Shown here: positions 9,761 through 60,240 of the stretch, piece by piece
How the letters are laid out: the number at the start of each line of letters is the position of its first letter
How positions within the stretch are numbered: position 1 is the stretch's first letter
NCBI GenBank assembly: GCA_016181045.1
Contig: JACPAB010000004.1
Location: 1 to 61,722 of the forward strand
Length of the DNA stretch: 61,722 nucleotides
Direction of reading: 5' to 3'
Source of the DNA: Candidatus Yanofskybacteria bacterium
GTDB lineage: Bacteria > Patescibacteriota > Minisyncoccia > 2-02-FULL-40-12 > GWA2-44-9
The notes under the pieces: generated by a model
What the model saw: only the letters and a program-made list of their open reading frames with translations
Database searches by the model: none
What the model was told of the DNA's origin: nothing
Translations under genes and position numbers: made by a program

Positions 9761-9786
9761 CCTGGTAATGTGTACACACTACCAGG
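9761..9786. repeat. 26-bp hairpin CCTGGTAATGTGTACACACTACCAGG
   Basis: Read directly; ends resemble the CCNGGTAGT element family; 42 nt upstream of the tmRNA 5' end. Confidence 0.8.
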
Positions 9787-9827: not shown

Positions 9828-10104
9828 GGGGATGAAAGGCCTCGACGAAGTTTGACAATCCGATGGATGCTAAGAGTGGACGGCCGGTTAACCACTATAA
9901 TAACCCCGGTCAACCAATTTAGGTGCCAATTATTCACCTAATTACGCTTACGCCTAACATCGTTTAGGTAAAGCCATCCTGCCATGATGCTCACTAATGG
10001 ATTTTGCTCGATTTTATACCTTCAGGTGAAATACCAAATCAGCTATCTTAGTAGATGTTCGTCGGATTCAATTTCGGACCCGGGTCCAATTCCCGGCATC
10101 TCCA
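9828..10104 (+). ncRNA. ssrA: tmRNA (ssrA), short form
   Basis: 5' GGGGATGAAAGGCCTCGACG pairs with 3' CATCTCCA, including the G3-U70 wobble. T arm is CCGGG-TCCAATT-CCCGG. Internal tag ORF 9925-9957 reads GCC AAT TAT TCA CCT AAT TAC GCT TAC GCC TAA (ANYSPNYAYA). smpB lies 420 bp away. Confidence 0.85.
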
Positions 10105-10110
10105 CAACAA

Positions 10111-12978: not shown

Positions 12979-13627
12979 TAAGTTCTATACTTTGAGATTA
13001 AGTTTTTTGAAATGGAGACCTTTTGTGATAAAGGAAGAATCTATTTTGGCGGCTGGTTATAAGGAAAGGTTCATCTGGCTGGATGGTGAGATAAATCCAA
13101 CGGTTGCATATCAGTTTAAGCGGATGCTTGCCAAGTTAAACAAATTGAAAATTGCCCCTATGGTTTTTTATATTAGTGGGCCTGGAGGTGATACTCATGC
13201 CGGATTTTCTATGATGAACGAAATTATAGCTTCAGATAGCCCGGTAATTATAGTGGCTCATGGTATTGTAACTTCGGGCTGTTTTACAATCACCCAAACC
13301 GGAGCCTATCAGCTGGCATTACCGGGAACTAAATTTACTTTTCATCCCGCTGAGCTTCAATTTAAAAAAAATTTGGGATATCAATTTCAGCTGACCCAAA
13401 GCCAACTGATCGAAAATCTTGAAAGACTTAGGCTCGTTGACTCTGTTCAATTATCCTGGCTTATTAAGAGGGGTCGACCAACAAAAGAAATTTTTGATCT
13501 GTTCAGGGTCGGGGCTACTATAAGTCTTCCTAAGGCCAGAAAATTACACTTGATAGATGGTTATTATAAGACAGAGGACTTTTTGAGAGATAAACGAATT
13601 GTAAGAAAGATAAAAAAGGCCAAATAG
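12965..13627 (+). CDS. ClpP-family-like serine protease (divergent)
   Basis: IWLDGEINPTVA...YISGPGGDTHAGFSMMNEI...GIVTSGCF...FHPAE...ARKLHLIDGY aligns by eye with ClpP Ser/His motif positions. Confidence 0.55.
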   Translation: MTNLDKFYTLRLSFLKWRPFVIKEESILAAGYKERFIWLDGEINPTVAYQFKRMLAKLNKLKIAPMVFYISGPGGDTHAGFSMMNEIIASDSPVIIVAHGIVTSGCFTITQTGAYQLALPGTKFTFHPAELQFKKNLGYQFQLTQSQLIENLERLRLVDSVQLSWLIKRGRPTKEIFDLFRVGATISLPKARKLHLIDGYYKTEDFLRDKRIVRKIKKAK

Positions 13628-16380: not shown

Positions 16381-19296
16381 ATGGCTGAATTCAACTTTAA
16401 CGAGAAAGAAAAGAAAGTACTGGATTTCTGGGAGAATAGGAAGATATTCGATAAATCACAGGAAATTCGCAAAAAGGCGAAGCGTTTTGTTTTTTTTGAA
16501 GGCCCTCCGACCGCGAACGGCTTGCCCGGCATCCACCATTTTCTGGGCCGGGCCTACAAAGATCTCTTTTGCCGCTACAAGACAATGCGCGGATATTTTG
16601 TTTTGCGCAAAGCGGGCTGGGACACTCACGGATTGCCGGTTGAGATAGAAGTCGAAAAAGAACTTGGGTTCAAGAACAAGAAAGACATCGAGCGATACGG
16701 CATAGACAAGTTCAACAAGAAGGCCAAGGAGAGCGTCTGGAAATATAAGAACGAATGGGAGCAGATGACGAAAAGAATGGGCTTCTGGCTCGATATGAGC
16801 GACCCCTATATCACATACAAGAACCAATACATTGAATCGCTCTGGGCGATAATCAAGAAGATTTGGGACAAAAAACTGCTTTTTCTCGCTCATCGGGTTG
16901 TGCATTTCTGCACGAGGTGCGGTACGCCGTTATCGTCGCACGAAGTAGCGCAAGGATACCGCACAATAACTGACAGGTCAGTTATTGTGAAATTCCAAAT
17001 TACAAATGACAAATTACAAAAAAATTTCAAAATCCAAAATCCAAATGCCAAAACTTATATTCTTGCGTGGACAACCACGCCGTGGACGTTGCCCGGGAAT
17101 GTTGCTTTGGCGGTTGGGAAAGATATTGATTATGCGGTTGTCGAATTGAATGGAGAAAACCTTATTTTAGCCAAAGATTTAGTAGAAAAAGTTTTTGGAT
17201 CTATAACCTATAACCTAAAACCTATAACCTACAAAGGTTCTGACCTCATTGGCCTGGAATATGAGCCGTTATTTGATATTGAAAAGTTAAAGTCGGAAAA
17301 CTCATACAGAATTTACGACGCCGACTTTGTTTCCACTCAAGAAGGCACTGGCGTCGTCCACACCGCGGTGATGTATGGAGAAGACGATTATGACTTGGGA
17401 ACTAAAATCGGTTTGCCTAAATTCCATACCGTAGATGAGCAAGGGAGATTTATTGGTGTTAGCAAAGAATTGGACGGCAGATATGTTAAAGATCCCGAAA
17501 CCGAAGAATTGATAATTGCAAAATTGAAAATTGAAAATTTAGTGTTCAAAATCGAAGATTTTGAACACGAGTATCCTTTCTGCTGGAGATGCGATACGCC
17601 GCTTTTATATTACGCCAAGGAATCCTGGTTTATAAAAATGTCGGCGATAAACAAGGAACTGCTCAAGAACAACCGGAAAATAAACTGGGTGCCGGAGCAT
17701 ATCAAAGACGGAAGATTCGGCCAGTGGCTGAAAGAGGGGAAGGACTGGGCCTTCTCACGGGAAAGATATTGGGGCACTCCTTTACCGATATGGAAGTGCG
17801 GTGATTGCGGAGATTTTACATTGGCGGGGTCGTTGGAAGACCTGGAAAAGAACAGATACAAGCCGAAGAACGAGTTTTATATTTTGCGGCACGGCCACAG
17901 CGAGAAGAACGGCAACGGTAAATGGGCTGAAATAATAAGTTCCCAGTTGAAAAACGATAAATATCATCTGACCGAAGACGGCAAGAAACAGGCAAAAGGG
18001 GTAACAAAGAAATTAAAAAAACTGGGCAAGCCGGACCTGATAATCTCGTCGCCGTTCAAAAGAACCAAAGAAACCGCGCACCTGGTCGCGGAGGCGTTCG
18101 GTCTGAAGGTCAGTATCGACGAGAGGATAGGTGAGTTTAACCACGGCTCGATATGCGAAGGCAGGACCAGCCATGTTTGCGGTTTGGAAAAAGAGCCGCG
18201 AAAATGGGACACCAAATACGGCGATGAAGAAAGCTGGGCGGACCTGCGCCGAAGGATGTCGCAGGCATTGAGAGACATCGATTCCAAGCACGAAGGCAAG
18301 AGGATACTTTTGGTAAGCCACGGCGACCCGATCTGGATATTGGAGACGTTCACTCTCGGACTGACCAAAGAAGAGGCCGTTCCGACAAGAGAAGAGTTAT
18401 ATCCGGCACAAGGAGAACTCAAGAAATTCGAGCTGAAAAACTGGCCGTATGATGACGACGGCGAATTAGATATGCACCGGCCGTACATAGATCAGATAGC
18501 GCTGAAGTGTCAGAAGTGCGGAGGCAAGATGGCAAAGATACCGGACCTGATAGATGTCTGGTTCGACTCCGGGGCGATGCCCTATGCTCAATGGCACTGG
18601 CCGTTCGAGAACCAAAAGACATTCAAGGAACAATTCCCGGCAGATTTCATTGCGGAGGGAATAGACATGACAAGAGGGTGGTTTTATACTTTGCTATCCG
18701 TAGCCACTCTTTTGGGAAAAGGCGCACCGTATAAGAATGTAATTTCCTACAGCCATGTATTGGACGATAAGGGCCAGAAAATGTCCAAGTCGAAAGGAAA
18801 TACCGTTTCTCCTTTTGCGGTGATGGAAAAGTTCGGCGCCGACGCGCCCCGGTGGTATTTCTATGCGGTTAACGAACCGGGGGACTATAAATTATTCAAC
18901 GAGAAGGATGTCGAGACCAAACTGAAAGGATTTTTCGGCACGCTTGATAACTGTGTCAGATTTTATGAATTATACTCGTCCGAAGAAGGATTTAAGATTT
19001 ACGATTTAAGATCTACGAATCTGTTAGACAAATGGATTTTGTCAAAATTTTACGGCCTTGTTTCAAATGTTTCCGTAAATCTTGATAAGTATGAACCCAC
19101 GTCGGCGGCAAGGGCGGTTGAGAAATTTGTTGTCGAGGACCTGTCTAACTGGTGGTTGAGGCGGTCTCGCAAGAGGAAAGACGCCCTGGGACTTTTGAGG
19201 TTTGTTCTGCTTGAACTTGCTAAAGTTATTGCTCCTTTCACGCCCCAAAGCCGGGACCGAAAGCGTTCACTTGCACGACTGGCCGAAGGTAAATAA
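16381..19296 (+). CDS. ileS: isoleucyl-tRNA synthetase, main body; reading frame breaks near 19245
   Basis: PPTANGLPGIHHFLGRAYKD (HIGH), WTTTPWTLPGN (editing), KMSKSKGN, zinc knuckles; the last 16 residues (QSRDRKRSLARLAEGK) look out of frame. Confidence 0.9.
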   Translation: MAEFNFNEKEKKVLDFWENRKIFDKSQEIRKKAKRFVFFEGPPTANGLPGIHHFLGRAYKDLFCRYKTMRGYFVLRKAGWDTHGLPVEIEVEKELGFKNKKDIERYGIDKFNKKAKESVWKYKNEWEQMTKRMGFWLDMSDPYITYKNQYIESLWAIIKKIWDKKLLFLAHRVVHFCTRCGTPLSSHEVAQGYRTITDRSVIVKFQITNDKLQKNFKIQNPNAKTYILAWTTTPWTLPGNVALAVGKDIDYAVVELNGENLILAKDLVEKVFGSITYNLKPITYKGSDLIGLEYEPLFDIEKLKSENSYRIYDADFVSTQEGTGVVHTAVMYGEDDYDLGTKIGLPKFHTVDEQGRFIGVSKELDGRYVKDPETEELIIAKLKIENLVFKIEDFEHEYPFCWRCDTPLLYYAKESWFIKMSAINKELLKNNRKINWVPEHIKDGRFGQWLKEGKDWAFSRERYWGTPLPIWKCGDCGDFTLAGSLEDLEKNRYKPKNEFYILRHGHSEKNGNGKWAEIISSQLKNDKYHLTEDGKKQAKGVTKKLKKLGKPDLIISSPFKRTKETAHLVAEAFGLKVSIDERIGEFNHGSICEGRTSHVCGLEKEPRKWDTKYGDEESWADLRRRMSQALRDIDSKHEGKRILLVSHGDPIWILETFTLGLTKEEAVPTREELYPAQGELKKFELKNWPYDDDGELDMHRPYIDQIALKCQKCGGKMAKIPDLIDVWFDSGAMPYAQWHWPFENQKTFKEQFPADFIAEGIDMTRGWFYTLLSVATLLGKGAPYKNVISYSHVLDDKGQKMSKSKGNTVSPFAVMEKFGADAPRWYFYAVNEPGDYKLFNEKDVETKLKGFFGTLDNCVRFYELYSSEEGFKIYDLRSTNLLDKWILSKFYGLVSNVSVNLDKYEPTSAARAVEKFVVEDLSNWWLRRSRKRKDALGLLRFVLLELAKVIAPFTPQSRDRKRSLARLAEGK
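17872..18462 (+). other. histidine-phosphatase (PGAM-like) domain inserted inside IleRS
   Basis: EFYILRHGHSEKN (RHG motif), SSPFKRTKETA, LLVSHGDPIWIL (second His); lies between WKCGDCGD...LEDLEK and LDMHRPYIDQ...DVWFDSG of IleRS. Confidence 0.75.
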
Positions 19297-19822
19297 GAAG
19301 CTGATAGATAAAGAGCTGGAGAAACAAATGGAGGAAGTTCAGAATATTGTCACCCTGGGCCTGGCTCAAAGAAAAGAAAAGCAGATAAAAGTCCGTCAGC
19401 CGTTAAGGTCGGTATATTTGGGACTTTCAAATGAATTTCCGAAAGATTTGGAGGTTTTGATGAAGGGTGAGCTTAATGTAAAAGAAATTGTTTATGATAA
19501 GGGTCAGAAAGAATTGGTTGTCCTGAACACAGAACTTGATGAGGCGTTAATTCATGAGGGCTATGCCAGGGAACTGATGCGCCAGATACAGGATATGAGA
19601 AAAGAAGCCAAATATCGCTTAGATGAAAAAGTATTTGGGCAATGGCATAGCGAAAACGAGGAAGTGAACCTTGTTTTGAAAAGTTGGGAGGGGCAGATAA
19701 AAGACGAAACACTGCTGAAAAACTTGGAGAATTATCCCAAGGACAACAAGAATTATGATGTCGAAAAAGAATTCGAACTTTCTCCCGGAAAAAAGATTTG
19801 GCTAGGCCTTTGGCAAAAATAA
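19202..19822 (+). CDS. ileS: isoleucyl-tRNA synthetase C-terminal segment in the +1 frame
   Basis: From about 19250 the +1 frame reads PKAGTESVHLHDWP...VRQPL, the conserved IleRS C-terminal region; the N-terminal part of this track ORF is overlap only. Confidence 0.75.
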   Translation: MFCLNLLKLLLLSRPKAGTESVHLHDWPKVNKKLIDKELEKQMEEVQNIVTLGLAQRKEKQIKVRQPLRSVYLGLSNEFPKDLEVLMKGELNVKEIVYDKGQKELVVLNTELDEALIHEGYARELMRQIQDMRKEAKYRLDEKVFGQWHSENEEVNLVLKSWEGQIKDETLLKNLENYPKDNKNYDVEKEFELSPGKKIWLGLWQK

Positions 19823-35411: not shown

Positions 35412-38891
<3,480 letters not shown>

Positions 38892-45121: not shown

Positions 45122-45357
45122 TTAAAAAATTATTAGCAAAATTAGTCGGTTTTCGGGAGCAAAGAGCGAATTTTCCCGCTACGCGCTTCGAGGCAGAACA
45201 AAAAGACGAAGCCAAGTTAGCCAGAGAACGCCTCGAAGATATCATGAGAAGCCGGGATAAAAAGTATGTTTCCGAGCGGACAATTCCGGCCGAAGAAGAC
45301 ATTTTAGGTCCCAGTGATTCGGCCCTCAAGGGCGAGAAGCAAGAAACTTCCGAATAA
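45118..45357 (+). CDS. hypothetical small charged protein
   Basis: 79-aa ORF overlapping the gatB stop (ATGA) and converging on the miaA 3' end. Confidence 0.4.
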   Translation: MIKKLLAKLVGFREQRANFPATRFEAEQKDEAKLARERLEDIMRSRDKKYVSERTIPAEEDILGPSDSALKGEKQETSE

Positions 45358-46543
45358 TTTCCCCGGCTTCTTTTTGGTTCTTGATCCCCTCGACTTCGCT
45401 CGGGGCAAGCCAATGTATCTCTTTATTCCTTTTGAACCAGGTCATCTGACGTTTTGAATACTTGATGATATCTCTCAATAAATTCTGGTATTCTTGAGAA
45501 TTTGAGAATGATTTTGGAGTTCTTTGTTTTCTATATTTTCTTAGCCATCCGGAAATCCACCGGTATTCAAGGCCTAACTCATCAAGTCGTTTCCAACTGA
45601 CTCCTTGTTTGCCAGGTAGTGAATGTTCCGGAGTTTCTCGGGCGACAAAGTCGCAGCCGGAACATCTACTACCTGGTTTGTGTAGGTTTTTAACTTCTTT
45701 TATCATCCCTTGTTTAAGACGTTCGTCTAGACGCTTTTTAATTTTGACGGCCAATTTTTCTTTACCCGGATTTAGTCCAAGCCACAAGACATCATAATTT
45801 CCAACCATCTGATTTATACCACGATCGTAGTATAAATCAGATTTATTTTTGAGAGCTTTTTTGATAGATTTTCTGGCCATTGCGATTTCTACGGCTCTTA
45901 TTAACCGGCGCTTGTTTTTGGGGTCAATCGTTTTTGCTCGTTCCGGGTCCAGTTTCTTTAATTTCTCAAATAATTTCTCAATTTCTAAATTTCCTAATCC
46001 CTTTCTTAATTTTTTGTTTGGCGGAACTTCGGCAACCGACATTCGGCCAAGCAAAACATCAATATAAAATCCCGTACCGCCGACAATAATGGGGATTTTG
46101 TTTTTGGTCAAGATTTCTTTTATGGCTTTTTGCCCCAACCTTTTAAAGTCGTCAGCGGTAAACTGTTTTTTAGGACTTGCAACATCAATAAGGTAATGCC
46201 TTACTCCCTCTGAATAGTAATCTTGGTTTTGAATTTTGAATTTTGAATTTTGGGTTTGTTTAGGATTTATCCCTAGGCCTTCGGCCGGGATCCCGGTCGT
46301 CTTTGGCGACCTAGGGAGGATTTTGGATTTAGGATTTCTATCCCTTGGGACCTTTCCCGTTCCGACATCCATTCCGCGGTAAACCTGCCGCGAGTCGGCG
46401 GAAATTATTTCACCCTCACACCTATGCATAGGTGTGAGGGCAAGCCACTTCATTTTTCTCGCGATTTTTATAGCCAAATCCGACTTTCCCGAAGCCGTCG
46501 GACCGACAATGACAACTATTTTCGGCGCTTTGCCACCAATCAT
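45326..46543 (-). CDS. miaA: tRNA dimethylallyltransferase with multiple in-frame repeat insertions
   Basis: IVGPTASGKS P-loop, EIISADSRQVYRGMDVGTGK, HYLIDV, IPIIVGGTGFY; 405 aa versus about 300 typical. Confidence 0.88.
   Translation of the reverse strand: MIGGKAPKIVVIVGPTASGKSDLAIKIARKMKWLALTPMHRCEGEIISADSRQVYRGMDVGTGKVPRDRNPKSKILPRSPKTTGIPAEGLGINPKQTQNSKFKIQNQDYYSEGVRHYLIDVASPKKQFTADDFKRLGQKAIKEILTKNKIPIIVGGTGFYIDVLLGRMSVAEVPPNKKLRKGLGNLEIEKLFEKLKKLDPERAKTIDPKNKRRLIRAVEIAMARKSIKKALKNKSDLYYDRGINQMVGNYDVLWLGLNPGKEKLAVKIKKRLDERLKQGMIKEVKNLHKPGSRCSGCDFVARETPEHSLPGKQGVSWKRLDELGLEYRWISGWLRKYRKQRTPKSFSNSQEYQNLLRDIIKYSKRQMTWFKRNKEIHWLAPSEVEGIKNQKEAGEIIRKFLASRP
45612..45676 (-). repeat. 65-bp CCNGGTAGT-family hairpin element, copy 2 (in frame within miaA)
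   Basis: Plus strand CCAGGTAGTGAATGTTCCGGAGTTTCTCGGGCGACAAAGTCGCAGCCGGAACATCTACTACCTGG, flanked by TTTG on both sides; the AGA-first orientation is on the minus (miaA sense) strand. Confidence 0.9.
45807..45842. repeat. 36-bp ACGATCGT-centred palindrome inside miaA
   Basis: ATCTGATTTATACCACGATCGTAGTATAAATCAGAT (one central mismatch pair); encodes KSDLYYDRGINQM. Confidence 0.9.
46413..46440. repeat. 28-bp perfect palindrome inside miaA
   Basis: CCCTCACACCTATGCATAGGTGTGAGGG flanked by CA on both sides; encodes LTPMHRCEG. Confidence 0.95.
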
Positions 46544-52639: not shown

Positions 52640-53329
52640 ATGCGTGACAAATTATCTGAGCTTGAATCAAAAATAAACTTTAAATTTAAAAACAAAGACC
52701 ATCTCCTGATGGCGCTTACCCATCGCTCATATCTCAATGAGAATCCGGGTTGGCATCTGGACCATAACGAGCGTCTGGAGTTTTTGGGCGATGCTGTTTT
52801 AGAACTTGTTGTAACCGAACATCTCTACTCCAACTACCCGAATCCTGAAGGAGAAATGACCAATTGGAGGGCGGCGCTGGTCAATGCCATAATGCTTTCG
52901 AAGATCACAGGAGAATTTGACCTGAATAAATATGTTCTGTTGTCCCGGGGCGAAGCCAAAGATACGGGCAGGGCCCGCCAATACATATTGGCCAATGCGA
53001 TGGAATCGCTGATCGGGGCCATATATTTGGACCAGGGTTATGATGCTTCCGAAAAGTTTATTAAAAAATTTATCTTGAAAGAATTGCCTGGGATTATAGA
53101 AAATCAGCTATACAGGGACGCCAAGAGTTTATTCCAAGAAACGGCCCAGGACAAAGTCGGAATTACCCCGACTTACGAAGTGTTAAAAGAATGGGGGCCA
53201 GACCATGCCCGGAACTTCGAGGTCGGAGTATTCCTTGAGAAGGAGTTGGTTGCTTCCGGGCAGGGCCCGTCCAAACAGGAAGCCCAGCAAGAGGCCGCCT
53301 CGGAGGCCTTGAAAAAGAAGGGCTGGTAA
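52640..53329 (+). CDS. rnc: ribonuclease III
   Basis: NERLEFLGDAVLELVV signature and C-terminal dsRBD. Confidence 0.93.
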   Translation: MRDKLSELESKINFKFKNKDHLLMALTHRSYLNENPGWHLDHNERLEFLGDAVLELVVTEHLYSNYPNPEGEMTNWRAALVNAIMLSKITGEFDLNKYVLLSRGEAKDTGRARQYILANAMESLIGAIYLDQGYDASEKFIKKFILKELPGIIENQLYRDAKSLFQETAQDKVGITPTYEVLKEWGPDHARNFEVGVFLEKELVASGQGPSKQEAQQEAASEALKKKGW

Positions 53330-57127: not shown

Positions 57128-58000
57128 ATGAAGAAATTATTTGGACTTGGAAAAGGATTGGGCTCATTGATCCCGACCGCAGCGGAAACAGGCAAGCAGG
57201 CCTCTCAAAAAGAGAACGTGTTTTATGTTGAAATAAACAGGATAAAACCGAATCCCAACCAGCCCAGGCGCGATTTTGAAGAAGAGGGACTGAAAGAACT
57301 GGCCAAGTCCATAAGGAAACACGGAGTTCTTCAGCCATTGCTGGTGTCTAAAGTCGAGAATGAAAGCCCGAAAGGACTGGAGGTTTACTACCACCTGATA
57401 GCCGGAGAAAGGCGCTGGCGGGCATCCCAAATTGCGGGCCTTCCTCAAGTTCCGGTAATTATCCGCGACGACATGGATGAGGAGAAAGACCGCCTCGAGA
57501 TCGCTTTAGTCGAGAACCTCCAGAGAAAGGACTTGAACTCCGTTGAAGAAGCGGAGGCCTATGAGCATCTTTCCAAAGAATTCGGACTTACCCAGAAAGA
57601 GATAGCCGAAAAGGTGGCGAAGTCCAGGGAATATGTCGCAAACGCGGTCAGAGTGTTAAATCTACCGCAAGATATTAGGGAGGCCCTACGAAGCGAGAAG
57701 ATATCTCGCTCCCACGCCAAGGCATTGTTGGCCATCAGTGATATGACCCAGCAAAGAGACATTTTTAACCAAATATTATCGGGCAACTTATCTTCCAAAG
57801 AAACCGAAAACATTGCCTCATCGGCCAAATCGAAACCAAAGGCCAAGAAAGACAACAAATTCACAACGCTTGAAAAGAACTTGAGCGAAACGCTTAAAGC
57901 GCCGGTATTGATCCACGCCGCGGAGAAAGGCGGCAAGATAATAGTGCGGTTCGCTACTCTCGAAGAATTAAACAAGATAGCGAAATCGATAATCGACTAA
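57128..58000 (+). CDS. parB: ParB/Spo0J partition protein
   Basis: IKPNPNQPRRDF, LIAGERRWRAS, HTH LTQKEIAEKVAKSREYVANAVR. Confidence 0.92.
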   Translation: MKKLFGLGKGLGSLIPTAAETGKQASQKENVFYVEINRIKPNPNQPRRDFEEEGLKELAKSIRKHGVLQPLLVSKVENESPKGLEVYYHLIAGERRWRASQIAGLPQVPVIIRDDMDEEKDRLEIALVENLQRKDLNSVEEAEAYEHLSKEFGLTQKEIAEKVAKSREYVANAVRVLNLPQDIREALRSEKISRSHAKALLAISDMTQQRDIFNQILSGNLSSKETENIASSAKSKPKAKKDNKFTTLEKNLSETLKAPVLIHAAEKGGKIIVRFATLEELNKIAKSIID

Positions 58001-58173
58001 CAAAAACTTCTGTGCGCGCCTGGCCCACTTCGTTACGGGCCTACAGCACGCCCTTCGGGTTTCCCGATCTCTTCGTTAAAATCTCCGCTTCTCCTTCACC
58101 ATACTTCAGTATGGCTTAGTCGAATGCTCGATTTTGCCTCGACCTCGGAAAACACAGAGAGTTTTTAATCCAG

Positions 58174-58344
58174 CGCAGGAACCCAGCCAATTGAAGACAC
58201 TTGAGACCCGGCTTTTGGCATGGTTGAGGCGGTATAATATACAAGAAACCGCCGAACAAAAGCCGAGACGGAGCCGTGGCGAACGTAGCCGAGGTTCCTC
58301 GCAGGGGAACCGGAGGCGTGTCTGAAATGGCTGGGTCCGGAGCG
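58174..58344. ncRNA. candidate structured RNA of unknown class (three-way junction)
   Basis: All-Watson-Crick long-range pairs 58181-58189/58328-58336 (9 bp) and 58195-58200/58318-58323 (6 bp). They enclose hairpins 58209-58217/58257-58265 plus 58228-58233/58248-58253, and 58293-58298/58306-58311. No convincing ORF; GC above local average. Confidence 0.4.
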
Positions 58345-58397
58345 AAAACAGCCAAGTGAAATACTAATCCTTATTCCAGCTTGCGGTAAGAATTCTG

Positions 58398-58415
58398 GCG
58401 CCTCGGGCGCTTTTT
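58398..58415 (+). terminator. intrinsic terminator on the plus strand
   Basis: GCGCCTCGGGCGCTTTTT. Confidence 0.7.
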
Positions 58416-58422
58416 ATGTTCG

Positions 58423-58490
58423 CCCGGTAGTAGATTTTTTAAATGCGCAAAGCGCAAAAGCCGAAGGCAATTCAAAAATTCACTACCGGG
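58423..58490 (+). repeat. 68-bp CCNGGTAGT-family hairpin element, copy 3 (overlaps the relA/spoT stop codon)
   Basis: CCCGGTAGTAGATTTTTTAAATGCGCAAAGCGCAAAAGCCGAAGGCAATTCAAAAATTCACTACCGGG, flanked by TTCG and TTTG. Confidence 0.88.
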
Positions 58491-60240
58491 TTTGAGCAAT
58501 CGATTTTTTCCAAGAAGCAGTTAAAACTCTATTTTGATTTGTGTTTTTAACGTTAGGACAGTTTGCTACATGTATGGAGACGCCTCGGTTCAAGGTCATA
58601 TAGCCCCTTATCTTGTGATTGACGGTGGGATTGCAGCACCGCGCGAATTTATACAACAGCCCGCGTTGGCCCTGAATGATGGGTTCGCCCCGGGGGTCGG
58701 CTATTATAATATTCTTTTTTTTCTGTGTTTCGGCTTTTTGTTTTCCCTCGGCAAGCTCGGGACCTGCGGCGGGTTCTTGTTCTTTGAACCACGATCTTAT
58801 TCTTTTTTTTGCTTCGGCCGTTTTTACGAACTTAAGCCAATCAAATGACGGCTTTTTTTCTTTACCTTTCATTATTTCAACGACATCGCCGTTCTTAAGC
58901 TCGTAGTCGAAAGGAACTATTTTGTTGTTGACCTTGGCTCCTTTGGTGGCGTGGCCAAGGTCGGTATGTATGGCGTAAGCAAAATCGATCGGCGTTGCGC
59001 CTTCGGGCAGGTCTTTAACATCTCCTTTGGGGGTGAAGGCGAATATCCTGTTCTTGAAAAAATGGATTTTGATATTGGAAAGTCCTTCGCCGGGCCGGAG
59101 CTCCTTGAGCATTTTCTTTAATTGTGTGACCCATTGGATCTCTTTAACATTGGCTTGGGCTGTCCTTGTCTTGCTGCCTTCGCTATATGCCCAGTGGGCG
59201 GCAATTCCGTTCTCGGCGAACTCGTGCATATCGGCGGTTCGTATTTGGAGCTCGACTATTTTTCCTTTCTCGCAGAAGATAGTGGTGTGGAGAGATTGGT
59301 ATCCGTTCGGTTTGGGCAGGGCGATATAATCCTTTATCAGTCCGGGCAGAGGCCTGTAGTGCTTATGTATCACACCCAGAGCTTCATAACATGATTTTAT
59401 ATCCGGAACGATAATCCTCATTGCCACAAGATCGTATATCTTATCTAACCCCTTTTCTTTTCGGCTCATTTTTTGATACAAACTATAGAAATGTTTGGCC
59501 CTGGAATGCATATCGACAATTTTTATTCCGGCATCGGTCAGACACCTTTTTATTAGAGGACTCGTTCTGTCTATGTAGTTTCCGACATTTCTATATTTAT
59601 TTTTAACTTTTTGAACAAACTCGGAATATTCTTTCGGATAAACATAGGGGAATGCCATGTCTTCCAATTGACCCTTAAGCCGGCCCATTCCAAGCCGGGC
59701 GGCAATGGGGGCGTATATTTCCATTGTCTCGAGAGCGATTCTATTCTGGTCGGTTTTGTTCAGAAATTTCAATGTTTCCATGTTGTGATACCGGTCGGCC
59801 AATTTTATCAGAATAACCCGGATATCTTCGGCCATGGCGAATATCATCTTCTTTAGAGAATTCAAATGGTCCGTGTGGTTATTTTTGTTGGCTCGCCCTG
59901 AGCTTGCCGAAGGGTCGGAGTATTCTATCTTGCTAAGTTTGGTTACGCCGTCTACCAAAAAGGCGATTTCTTTTCCGAACTCTTTTTCCAGGTCGGCATG
60001 TGTCAGAGATGTGTCCTCGATGGTGTCATGAAGCAGGCAGGCGGCGATAGTGGTTGAATCCAGTCCGAGTTCGGAAAGAAAGCAGGCAACCTGCAACGGG
60101 TGAGTTATATAGGGTTCTCCGGAGAATCTTTTTTGTCCTTGGTGCGCTTTCTCTGAATATAAGCAAGCCCTTTTTATAAGAGCGCGATCTTTATCGTTAA
60201 ATGCAGGTTTGTCTAGTATTTTCTCAAGTATGTCGGACAT
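58483..60240 (-). CDS. bifunctional (p)ppGpp synthetase/hydrolase, RelA/SpoT family
   Basis: HD domain (HDTIEDT), synthetase motif DYIALPKPNGYQSLHTTI, TGS domain, Cys-rich C-terminal region; 585 aa. Confidence 0.9.
   Translation of the reverse strand: MSDILEKILDKPAFNDKDRALIKRACLYSEKAHQGQKRFSGEPYITHPLQVACFLSELGLDSTTIAACLLHDTIEDTSLTHADLEKEFGKEIAFLVDGVTKLSKIEYSDPSASSGRANKNNHTDHLNSLKKMIFAMAEDIRVILIKLADRYHNMETLKFLNKTDQNRIALETMEIYAPIAARLGMGRLKGQLEDMAFPYVYPKEYSEFVQKVKNKYRNVGNYIDRTSPLIKRCLTDAGIKIVDMHSRAKHFYSLYQKMSRKEKGLDKIYDLVAMRIIVPDIKSCYEALGVIHKHYRPLPGLIKDYIALPKPNGYQSLHTTIFCEKGKIVELQIRTADMHEFAENGIAAHWAYSEGSKTRTAQANVKEIQWVTQLKKMLKELRPGEGLSNIKIHFFKNRIFAFTPKGDVKDLPEGATPIDFAYAIHTDLGHATKGAKVNNKIVPFDYELKNGDVVEIMKGKEKKPSFDWLKFVKTAEAKKRIRSWFKEQEPAAGPELAEGKQKAETQKKKNIIIADPRGEPIIQGQRGLLYKFARCCNPTVNHKIRGYMTLNRGVSIHVANCPNVKNTNQNRVLTASWKKSIAQTR

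Follow-up and report, generated by a model that had tools for sequence, protein, structure and literature searches.

The window analysed here, the whole 61,722-nt stretch of contig JACPAB010000004.1 (assembly GCA_016181045.1, Candidatus Yanofskybacteria bacterium), carries at the 3′ end of its relA/spoT gene a 68-bp palindromic element, here called copy C, which supplies the stop codon of that gene. Copy C is very probably a non-autonomous DNA transposon, i.e. a miniature transposable element with inverted repeats (MITE), which was inserted in the last relA codons and belongs to a family spread through the Patescibacteria. A MITE-type insertion is indicated by the score of copy C in a model trained without window sequence, by flank duplications, by dispersed near-identical copies, by the nesting of one element inside another and by an empty site in relatives. 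The locus comprises the following features, TSD standing for target site duplication:

58423 to 58490, plus strand (AGA end first): element copy C, 68 bp, entered by relA via the GAA end
58419 to 58422: left TSD copy, TTCG (CGAA on the relA strand), one base unlike the right copy
58491 to 58494: right TSD copy, TTTG (CAAA on the relA strand)
58483 to 60240, minus strand: relA/spoT, bifunctional (p)ppGpp synthetase/hydrolase, 585 aa, ending ...SIAQTR-TAG
58483 to 58485 (read 58485-58483), minus strand: present relA stop TAG, within the right terminus of copy C, xCC CGG TAG
58414 to 58416, minus strand: TAA that relA would have used before the insertion (...SIAQT-TAA), as given by in-silico excision of 58419-58490

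The full sequence of copy C is CCCGGTAGTAGATTTTTTAAATGCGCAAAGCGCAAAAGCCGAAGGCAATTCAAAAATTCACTACCGGG, with the termini CCCGGTAGTAGA ... TTCACTACCGGG. Its outer stem is complementary at 9 of 9 positions, its 24-nt arms show 83% complementarity, and the RNA of each strand has a folding energy of -27 to -28 kcal/mol, with z = -5.4 to -5.9 relative to shuffled sequences. An earlier note on this DNA had described a 68-bp element between TTCG and TTTG, and its position, size and flanks (identical at 3 of 4 bases) were confirmed; the boundaries 58422/58423 and 58490/58491 are the exact break points of similarity to other metagenome copies. The final relA codons are TCG ATT GCT CAA ACC CGG TAG, where A-CC CGG TAG consists of one flank base and the copy C terminus. 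Because the terminal TAG lies in the relA frame, translation stops 8 nt into copy C and ...SIAQT* becomes ...SIAQTR*. Excision of 58419-58490 in silico, i.e. of the element and one flank copy, gives ...TCG ATT GCT CAA ACA TAA (SIAQT-TAA, with the TAA at 58416..58414), so that the stop within the element, the predicted SIAQT-TAA and the change of the C-terminus by one residue, all of which had been claimed before, could be reproduced. An assembly chimera at copy C was ruled out: the flanks rejoin as one relA-like frame, and a single unitig (run X3) covers 58314-58717 with zero mismatches and without a break, so the join is not an assembly artefact. The homologues of the relA/spoT product reach up to 86% identity, and their domains are HD_4, HD, RelA_SpoT, TGS and RelA_RIS.

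A covariance model, R1, was built from 109 copies of other genomes and contains zero window sequence. Scanning the window with R1 returned exactly three copies, at 35418-35482, 45612-45676 and 58423-58490, the last of which is copy C, matched at full length with 55.5 bits (E 2.3e-14); the family search proposed earlier as a check on this third copy therefore supports its membership. The other two copies are:

35418 to 35482, plus strand: copy A, 65 bp, with TATG duplicated (35414-17 and 35483-86) at the gyrB start codon; R1 57.1 bits
45612 to 45676, minus strand: copy B, 65 bp, with the TSD TTTG (45608-11 and 45677-80), in frame within miaA; R1 59.8 bits

When the window was searched with the end sequences, two copies besides copy C came up as well. 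The three copies share one plan, consisting of a 9-bp terminal stem whose position 3 covaries (A:T or C:G), an invariant A·C mismatch together with an invariant G·T pair, which confer polarity (an AGA end and a GAA end), a further stem, 7-10 bp long, with an unlike sequence in each copy, and one or two small apical hairpins. A fourth candidate at 13240-13326, within a ClpP-like open reading frame (ORF), was rejected as a chance match (12 bits, E 0.28). Just upstream of the transfer-messenger RNA gene (9828-10107) there is a 26-bp mini-hairpin, CCTGGTAAT...ACTACCAGG (9761-9786), possibly what is left of a copy, since it matches the family model weakly (15.7 bits, E 0.02). Copy C and its surroundings had no match in Rfam, at the gathering threshold or at E up to 5-10.

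Representative genomes were searched with the pattern GGTAGTAGA-N25-55-TTCACTACCNGG, which yielded at least 120 family loci; in this pattern-based set the twelve terminal bases are invariant by construction. Among the 80 titles listed, nearly all are metagenome-assembled genomes (MAGs) of Patescibacteria, including Yanofsky-, Nomura-, Lipton-, Portnoy-, Nealson-, Harrison-, Giovannoni-, Niyogi- and Gottesmanbacteria, Paceibacteria and records titled Saccharibacteria. A few pattern matches without the leading CC (L003, L094) were discarded as chance. With a less biased search, using a model on 709 kb of other contigs of the candidate phyla radiation (CPR), nine more copies were found, whose ends are mostly identical and whose rare end changes are again compensated (e.g. 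GTAGC/GCTAC). Family copies measure 56-78 bp and have no coding capacity of their own. There are also long forms of ~134 bp, which share these ends and have 4-bp duplications too, but whose interior is rich in A+T and not palindromic; L103 (5-136), L046, L115, L129 and L163 are the examples of nesting or of long forms.

Exact 4-bp flank repeats were present at 66 of 120 copies among the matches listed, against a chance expectation of ~0.4% (<1%), and about 30 more copies have 3- or 5-bp repeats, in agreement with the earlier proposal of a repeated element inserted with a 4-bp duplication. The window sequence was found in four groundwater metagenome runs (DNA runs only), and other contigs of the same runs harbor copies 95-97% identical to the copy C variant within unrelated flanks, one near-identical copy having CACG on both sides. 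In L103 an element is nested inside another and has its own CTGG duplication. The window contains 3 copies in its 62 kb; in other CPR contigs there is ~1 every 79 kb. Transport by phage was considered as well, and a search of 2.9 million viral contigs gave 0 family matches.

The closest homologues of RelA share 78-86% identity with it, and none of the corresponding loci (L121-L126) carries the copy C element; the uninterrupted site in relatives reads GCTCAAA-CATAAAA. Joining the flanks of copy C gives GATTGCTCAAACATAAAAAGCGCC... (GAT TGC TCA AAC ATA AAA AGC GCC CGA GGC GCC AGA ATT CTT ACC GCA AGC TGG AAT AAG GAT TAG), and this translates to DCSNIKSARGARILTASWNKD*. The joined flanks align at the DNA level with the uninterrupted ...CTGCTCAAACATAAAAGGCGCC... 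of L121, L122 and L124-L126, the reading of L124 and L125 being CTGCTCAAACATAAAAGG, and 15-17 of the 21 residues of the translation are identical to the C-termini of P0001 and P0003-P0006. Orthologues have one CAAA or CGAA only at the target. Since the joined flanks match the uninterrupted relA ends of relatives, the target was CAAA (relA strand), which is now present twice with one copy changed to CGAA. The joined flanks thus represent a relic relA 3′ end, whose two parts are:

58364 to 58418, minus strand: downstream part (...NIKSARGARILTASWNKD-TAG, stop 58366..58364), one base out of the relA frame
58491 to 58501, minus strand: upstream part, GAT TGC TCA AA (D C S N...), contiguous with 58418 after excision

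As the upstream part meets 58418 once the element is removed, this arrangement provides the proof of an empty site. Four features that define a MITE were found, namely terminal inverted repeats, a short non-coding body (68 bp in copy C), a TSD with an uninterrupted site in the five relatives named above, and dispersed copies with signs of recent movement.

The relA 3′ end occurs twice within 58364-58503 (minus strand). The functional end, ...NCPNVKNTNQNRVLTASWKK, is closest to L123/P0002, the remainder of relA is closest to L124/P0001 by sliding identity, and the relic is similar to the class formed by the closest relatives (L124, L122). Orthologous RelA proteins end in ...ASWKK*, ...ASWNKK* or similar. 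Because the relic lies directly behind the functional end and is shifted by one base, relA ran five codons (SIAQT) to an out-of-frame TAA. The SIAQT tail and its TAA are thus the product of an earlier rearrangement and not the ancestral relA end, most simply of a patch-like recombination with a divergent allele that had an illegitimate 3′ junction. Two statements of the earlier note have to be revised here: the TAA is not the ancestral stop, and the element did not land on it, as the duplicated CAAA ends 2 nt upstream. The comparison with relA 3′ ends of relatives, which had been suggested in the same place, bore out the absence of the element and the uninterrupted site, whereas the C-termini of the relatives turned out not to be SIAQT. 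The rearrangement probably preceded the insertion. The reverse order, in which the insertion truncates the native end and an upstream patch repairs it, is less likely since it needs a harmful intermediate. The exact 20-mer of the relA/relic junction had 0 matches in JGI metagenomes.

On this reading copy C was inserted by a 4-bp staggered cut at CAAA (relA strand), 2 nt before the stop then in use; the enzyme was probably a transposase of the DDE type acting in trans. The target would already have been the non-conserved five-residue tail left by the rearrangement, in which the functional relA 3′ end is followed by a relic of the native one, and the insertion probably survived because it was near-neutral. 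Insertion sequence (IS) families like IS1380, whose ends are CC and whose duplications measure 4-5 bp, are a possible lead to the mover. Over the whole family a filter probably operates, by which copies are retained at start codons, the duplication there restoring the ATG, at a few nt from stops in the frame of the TAG, in spacers that are short, or within genes if they are in frame.

The positions of the copies listed, ~120 in number, bear out the earlier remark that surviving insertions sit at gene boundaries or in frame. Every family member has a TAG in one frame of the terminal repeat, xCC NGG TAG, in both orientations. Where ORFs with at least 100 open codons enter an element, 19 of 28 end at this built-in TAG, from either end, and for 15 of those 19 the reconstructed native stop lies 2-20 nt past the junction. 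Intragenic copies are a minority of the family, and the five clear cases (L002, L057, L060, L092 and miaA of the window) are all in frame, the length of element plus TSD being divisible by 3; they use the frame CCN GGT AGT, which encodes PGS(R/E)...(S/L)LPG. Copy B accordingly encodes PGSRCSGCDFVARETPEHSLPG in MiaA, and the alignment to solved MiaA structures breaks there. Compared with the same structures, MiaA (45326-46543) has two further insertions, located near residues 27-37 and 68-110. The idea that out-of-frame insertions are overcome by recoding, bypass or splicing was considered and dropped, as all eight candidates were random open frames beside real gene starts (rpsL, groES).

About 19 copies lie exactly on the TATG start codons of unrelated genes, including dnaA, dnaB, uvrB, leuS and rpmE, in addition to gyrB of the window and trpS of L103. 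In these cases the duplication keeps an intact ATG beside the ORF, and the orientation of the copies is biased (19 versus 2-5). An outward promoter was rejected as the cause of this bias, the best sigma-70-like scores being equal in both orientations (7.1 versus 7.1). The genes behind the start-codon copies (L013, L016, L025, L040, L067, L076, L115 and others, and 35414-35486 in the window) are essential ones, and most of these copies give rise to a small upstream ORF, MPGSENS..., whose frame is not that of the gene. For gyrB (35484-38891) the product measures 1135 aa from the gene-adjacent ATG at 35484 and 1158 aa from the upstream ATG at 35415; the protein also has a large intein-like insert in its Toprim region (...VHN-SSKSG...).

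Several results weigh against a plain MITE insertion. No transposase Pfam match was found among the ~39 window ORFs, and the 1.74 Mb of CPR DNA that were fetched yielded no autonomous element, looked for as two ends spaced by 0.7-4 kb and sharing a TSD. No empty-site allele of the exact copy C locus was found in the four groundwater runs, for which unitigs were searched and rare variants are dropped, and the order of rearrangement first and insertion second is one that we infer. The strongest tension comes from the stems, in which covariation is far above that of a decaying selfish insert. In the 109 copies from outside the window, 98.1% of the pairings at the 19 pairs of the model are canonical, and nine pairs have changed on both sides; such double-side changes amount to 339 cells versus 94 ± 8 in shuffles and at most 87 with partners slid, and only ~1.5% of the variable cells are G-U. 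Moreover, the syntenic pairs L043/L045, L007/L044 and L001/L014, whose flanks are 71-75% identical, show 10 double and 0 single stem changes, which hints at selection or concerted evolution on resident copies. Possible causes are selection on resident hairpins, homogenisation of the arms, and repeated insertion of variants at a preferred site; the near-absence of G-U favours a constraint on the DNA over one on the RNA.

A purely selfish decaying MITE does not predict such covariation, and on this basis a role for the host has to be weighed. The family hairpin, as RNA or DNA, might be a cis module kept by the host at gene boundaries, serving as an RNase III site, as a start/stop insulator or as a supercoiling/cruciform site, with copy C retained for that role. 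Strong and almost purely Watson-Crick covariation speaks for this, as do the conservation of the 12-bp termini across several Patescibacteria classes (by record titles), the syntenic copies that keep their site in diverged genomes with compensated stem changes only, the oriented copies on start codons, and an RNase III gene in the window itself (52640-53329). Duplicated flanks, nesting, near-identical dispersed copies and patchy density are, however, marks of mobile DNA; copy C is absent from the closest relA relatives, the few G-U pairs suggest DNA symmetry instead of an RNA constraint, the syntenic differences could equally stem from repeated insertion at a preferred site, and the outward promoter signal is equal in both orientations. 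Overall we consider such a host-kept module unlikely, while not negligible. We regard with similar reserve, as a tentative suggestion, the wider idea that the family is a superphylum-wide gene-boundary hairpin tolerated or used by its hosts, or one whose arms are homogenised by an undescribed hairpin-templated copying during transposition. If it were true, the design of the element (both ends with a TAG in one of the frames, two frames that stay open, and a duplication that regenerates ATG) would permit life on the starts and stops of essential genes in genomes that have hardly any spacer, and compensatory evolution would keep resident copies folded for RNase III processing, for the choice of ATG or for 3′ end protection.

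A narrower role, compatible with an origin by insertion, is that copy C was co-opted as the relA transcription terminator, as the earlier note supposed, or as a hairpin protecting the 3′ end of the mRNA. The hairpin is very stable and directly follows the relA stop, and MITEs and repetitive extragenic palindromic (REP) sequences at 3′ ends affect the fate of transcripts (PMC10969869, PMC3733652). In relatives relA and the convergent parB overlap or are separated by 0-55 nt, against 482 nt in the window, so some signal for the 3′ end would be needed. A stable hairpin straight after a stop resembles a Rho-independent terminator. It differs in that the relA strand lacks a U-tract: the main stem is followed by CGAACAUAAAAAG, and a consensus terminator scan of 57900-58700 gave zero sites on the relA (minus) strand. 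The inner hairpins reported earlier (TGCGC-AAA-GCGCA and GCC-GAA-GGC) are indeed present in copy C, but their T-runs needed correction, UUUU following the 3-bp stem and UUU the 5-bp stem, and stems of 3 and 5 bp speak against termination, as does the lack of a conserved U-run past the hairpin in the family, in either orientation. The sole terminator-like structure near copy C faces the other way:

58397 to 58416 (hairpin 58397-58411), plus strand: hairpin and T-run (GGCGCCTCGGGCGCT TTTTAT), opposite relA and made of relic codons

The co-option of copy C as terminator or protective hairpin is unlikely, and termination in the form first proposed is not supported. As Correia elements are cleaved by RNase III (PMC10969869), a part as 3′ protective hairpin or RNase III target may be envisaged as a possible function of copy C.

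That the element is a palindrome of the REP/REPIN type, mobilised in single-stranded form by a RAYT transposase (a tyrosine enzyme like that of IS200), is very improbable. The lead to it was the GTAG within CCNGGTAGT: the family terminus contains this motif, the whole element forms a REPIN-like hairpin, and REPs are hairpin repeats with concerted arms that lie mostly downstream of genes and sometimes within them (PMC3733652). In the family, however, flank duplications are the rule, while Y1 transposases make none and REPs lack target duplication; the family GTAG is paired in the stem (columns 5-8), while the GTAG tag of REPs is unpaired at one end (PMC3733652); and REPs are linked to a RAYT gene, while no Y1_Tnp match was found among the window ORFs. 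REPs have been reported from Proteobacteria, Cyanobacteria, Chloroflexi and the PVC group, and not from CPR. Membership in REP/RAYT, attC-like or Correia repeats was rejected on TSD, paired GTAG and size.

The kind of element is already known: the family is made of MITEs, and in behaviour it is closest to the Rickettsia palindromic elements (RPEs). The member itself, its host range and its start/stop-codon habit appear to be new, no description of the family having been found in the searchable literature. With the MITEs of other bacteria (Correia of Neisseria, ERIC, RUP/BOX/SPRITE of pneumococcus) it has in common that copies are small and non-coding, have terminal inverted repeats and TSD, are dispersed, clustered or nested, and give stable transcript hairpins; MITE insertion at gene ends can alter the fate of transcripts or the termini of proteins (PMC10969869). 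The family differs by its much smaller size (56-78 bp, long forms ~134 bp), by a 4-bp TSD that is varied and not TA, by unrelated termini, CCNGGTAGT(AGA/GAA), by an interior that is different in each copy between arms that remain complementary, by its Patescibacteria hosts and by having no known partner IS. RPEs likewise are palindromes inserted as in-frame peptides in reduced genomes with little spacer (PMC10969869). They are, however, ~100-150 bp long, restricted to Rickettsia and of unrelated sequence, a distinction drawn from the description in PMC10969869 and general knowledge and not from an alignment. In contrast to RPEs, the present family is found mostly at gene boundaries with a minority of intragenic copies, has a built-in TAG that caps ORFs, and includes a start-codon class.

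The 482-nt parB-relA spacer, for which relatives range from an 11-nt overlap to ~55 nt, is a nest of three repeats plus the relic. Besides copy C it contains a conserved structured element of ~170 nt (58003-58176), with the core TTCGTTAAAANCTCCGC...TTTTGCC on the plus strand, for which at least 120 metagenome loci were found, sometimes two per contig, at 10-20 times the k-mer depth of the flanks. In the orientation of the window's minus strand it is often located 0-100 nt upstream of genes with high expression (L32, S21, HU, DnaK, GroEL, RpoC); it has no Rfam match at E up to 10, and relatives do not have it between relA and parB. The third repeat is a palindromic element of ~156 bp (58181-58336) with the arms ACCCAGCCAATTGAAGACAC / GTGTCTGAAATGGCTGGGT, and because these arms reach 8-20 times the flank depth it is probably a second MITE family. 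Elsewhere in the window, 16381-19822 encodes a tRNA synthetase of the isoleucyl/valyl type, in which a histidine-phosphatase domain (His_Phos_1) has been inserted as residues 500-664; the last part of its anticodon-binding domain is found in an overlapping second ORF (19202-19822).

For relA itself the effect of copy C is trivial, being one extra arginine on a non-conserved tail. The family is of wider interest as a very small transposon, whose 12-bp ends are common to MAGs titled Yanofsky-, Nomura-, Lipton-, Portnoy-, Nealson- and Gottesmanbacteria, Saccharibacteria and others. CPR gene callers will be misled by its copies into false N-terminal extensions, altered C-termini and inserts of 20-26 residues. 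With stems that covary at syntenic sites, it lends itself to the question of whether hairpins of this kind are selected in place. The family also shows how mobile DNA can persist in tiny, gene-dense genomes, namely at landing sites where its own sequence restores the start or the stop.

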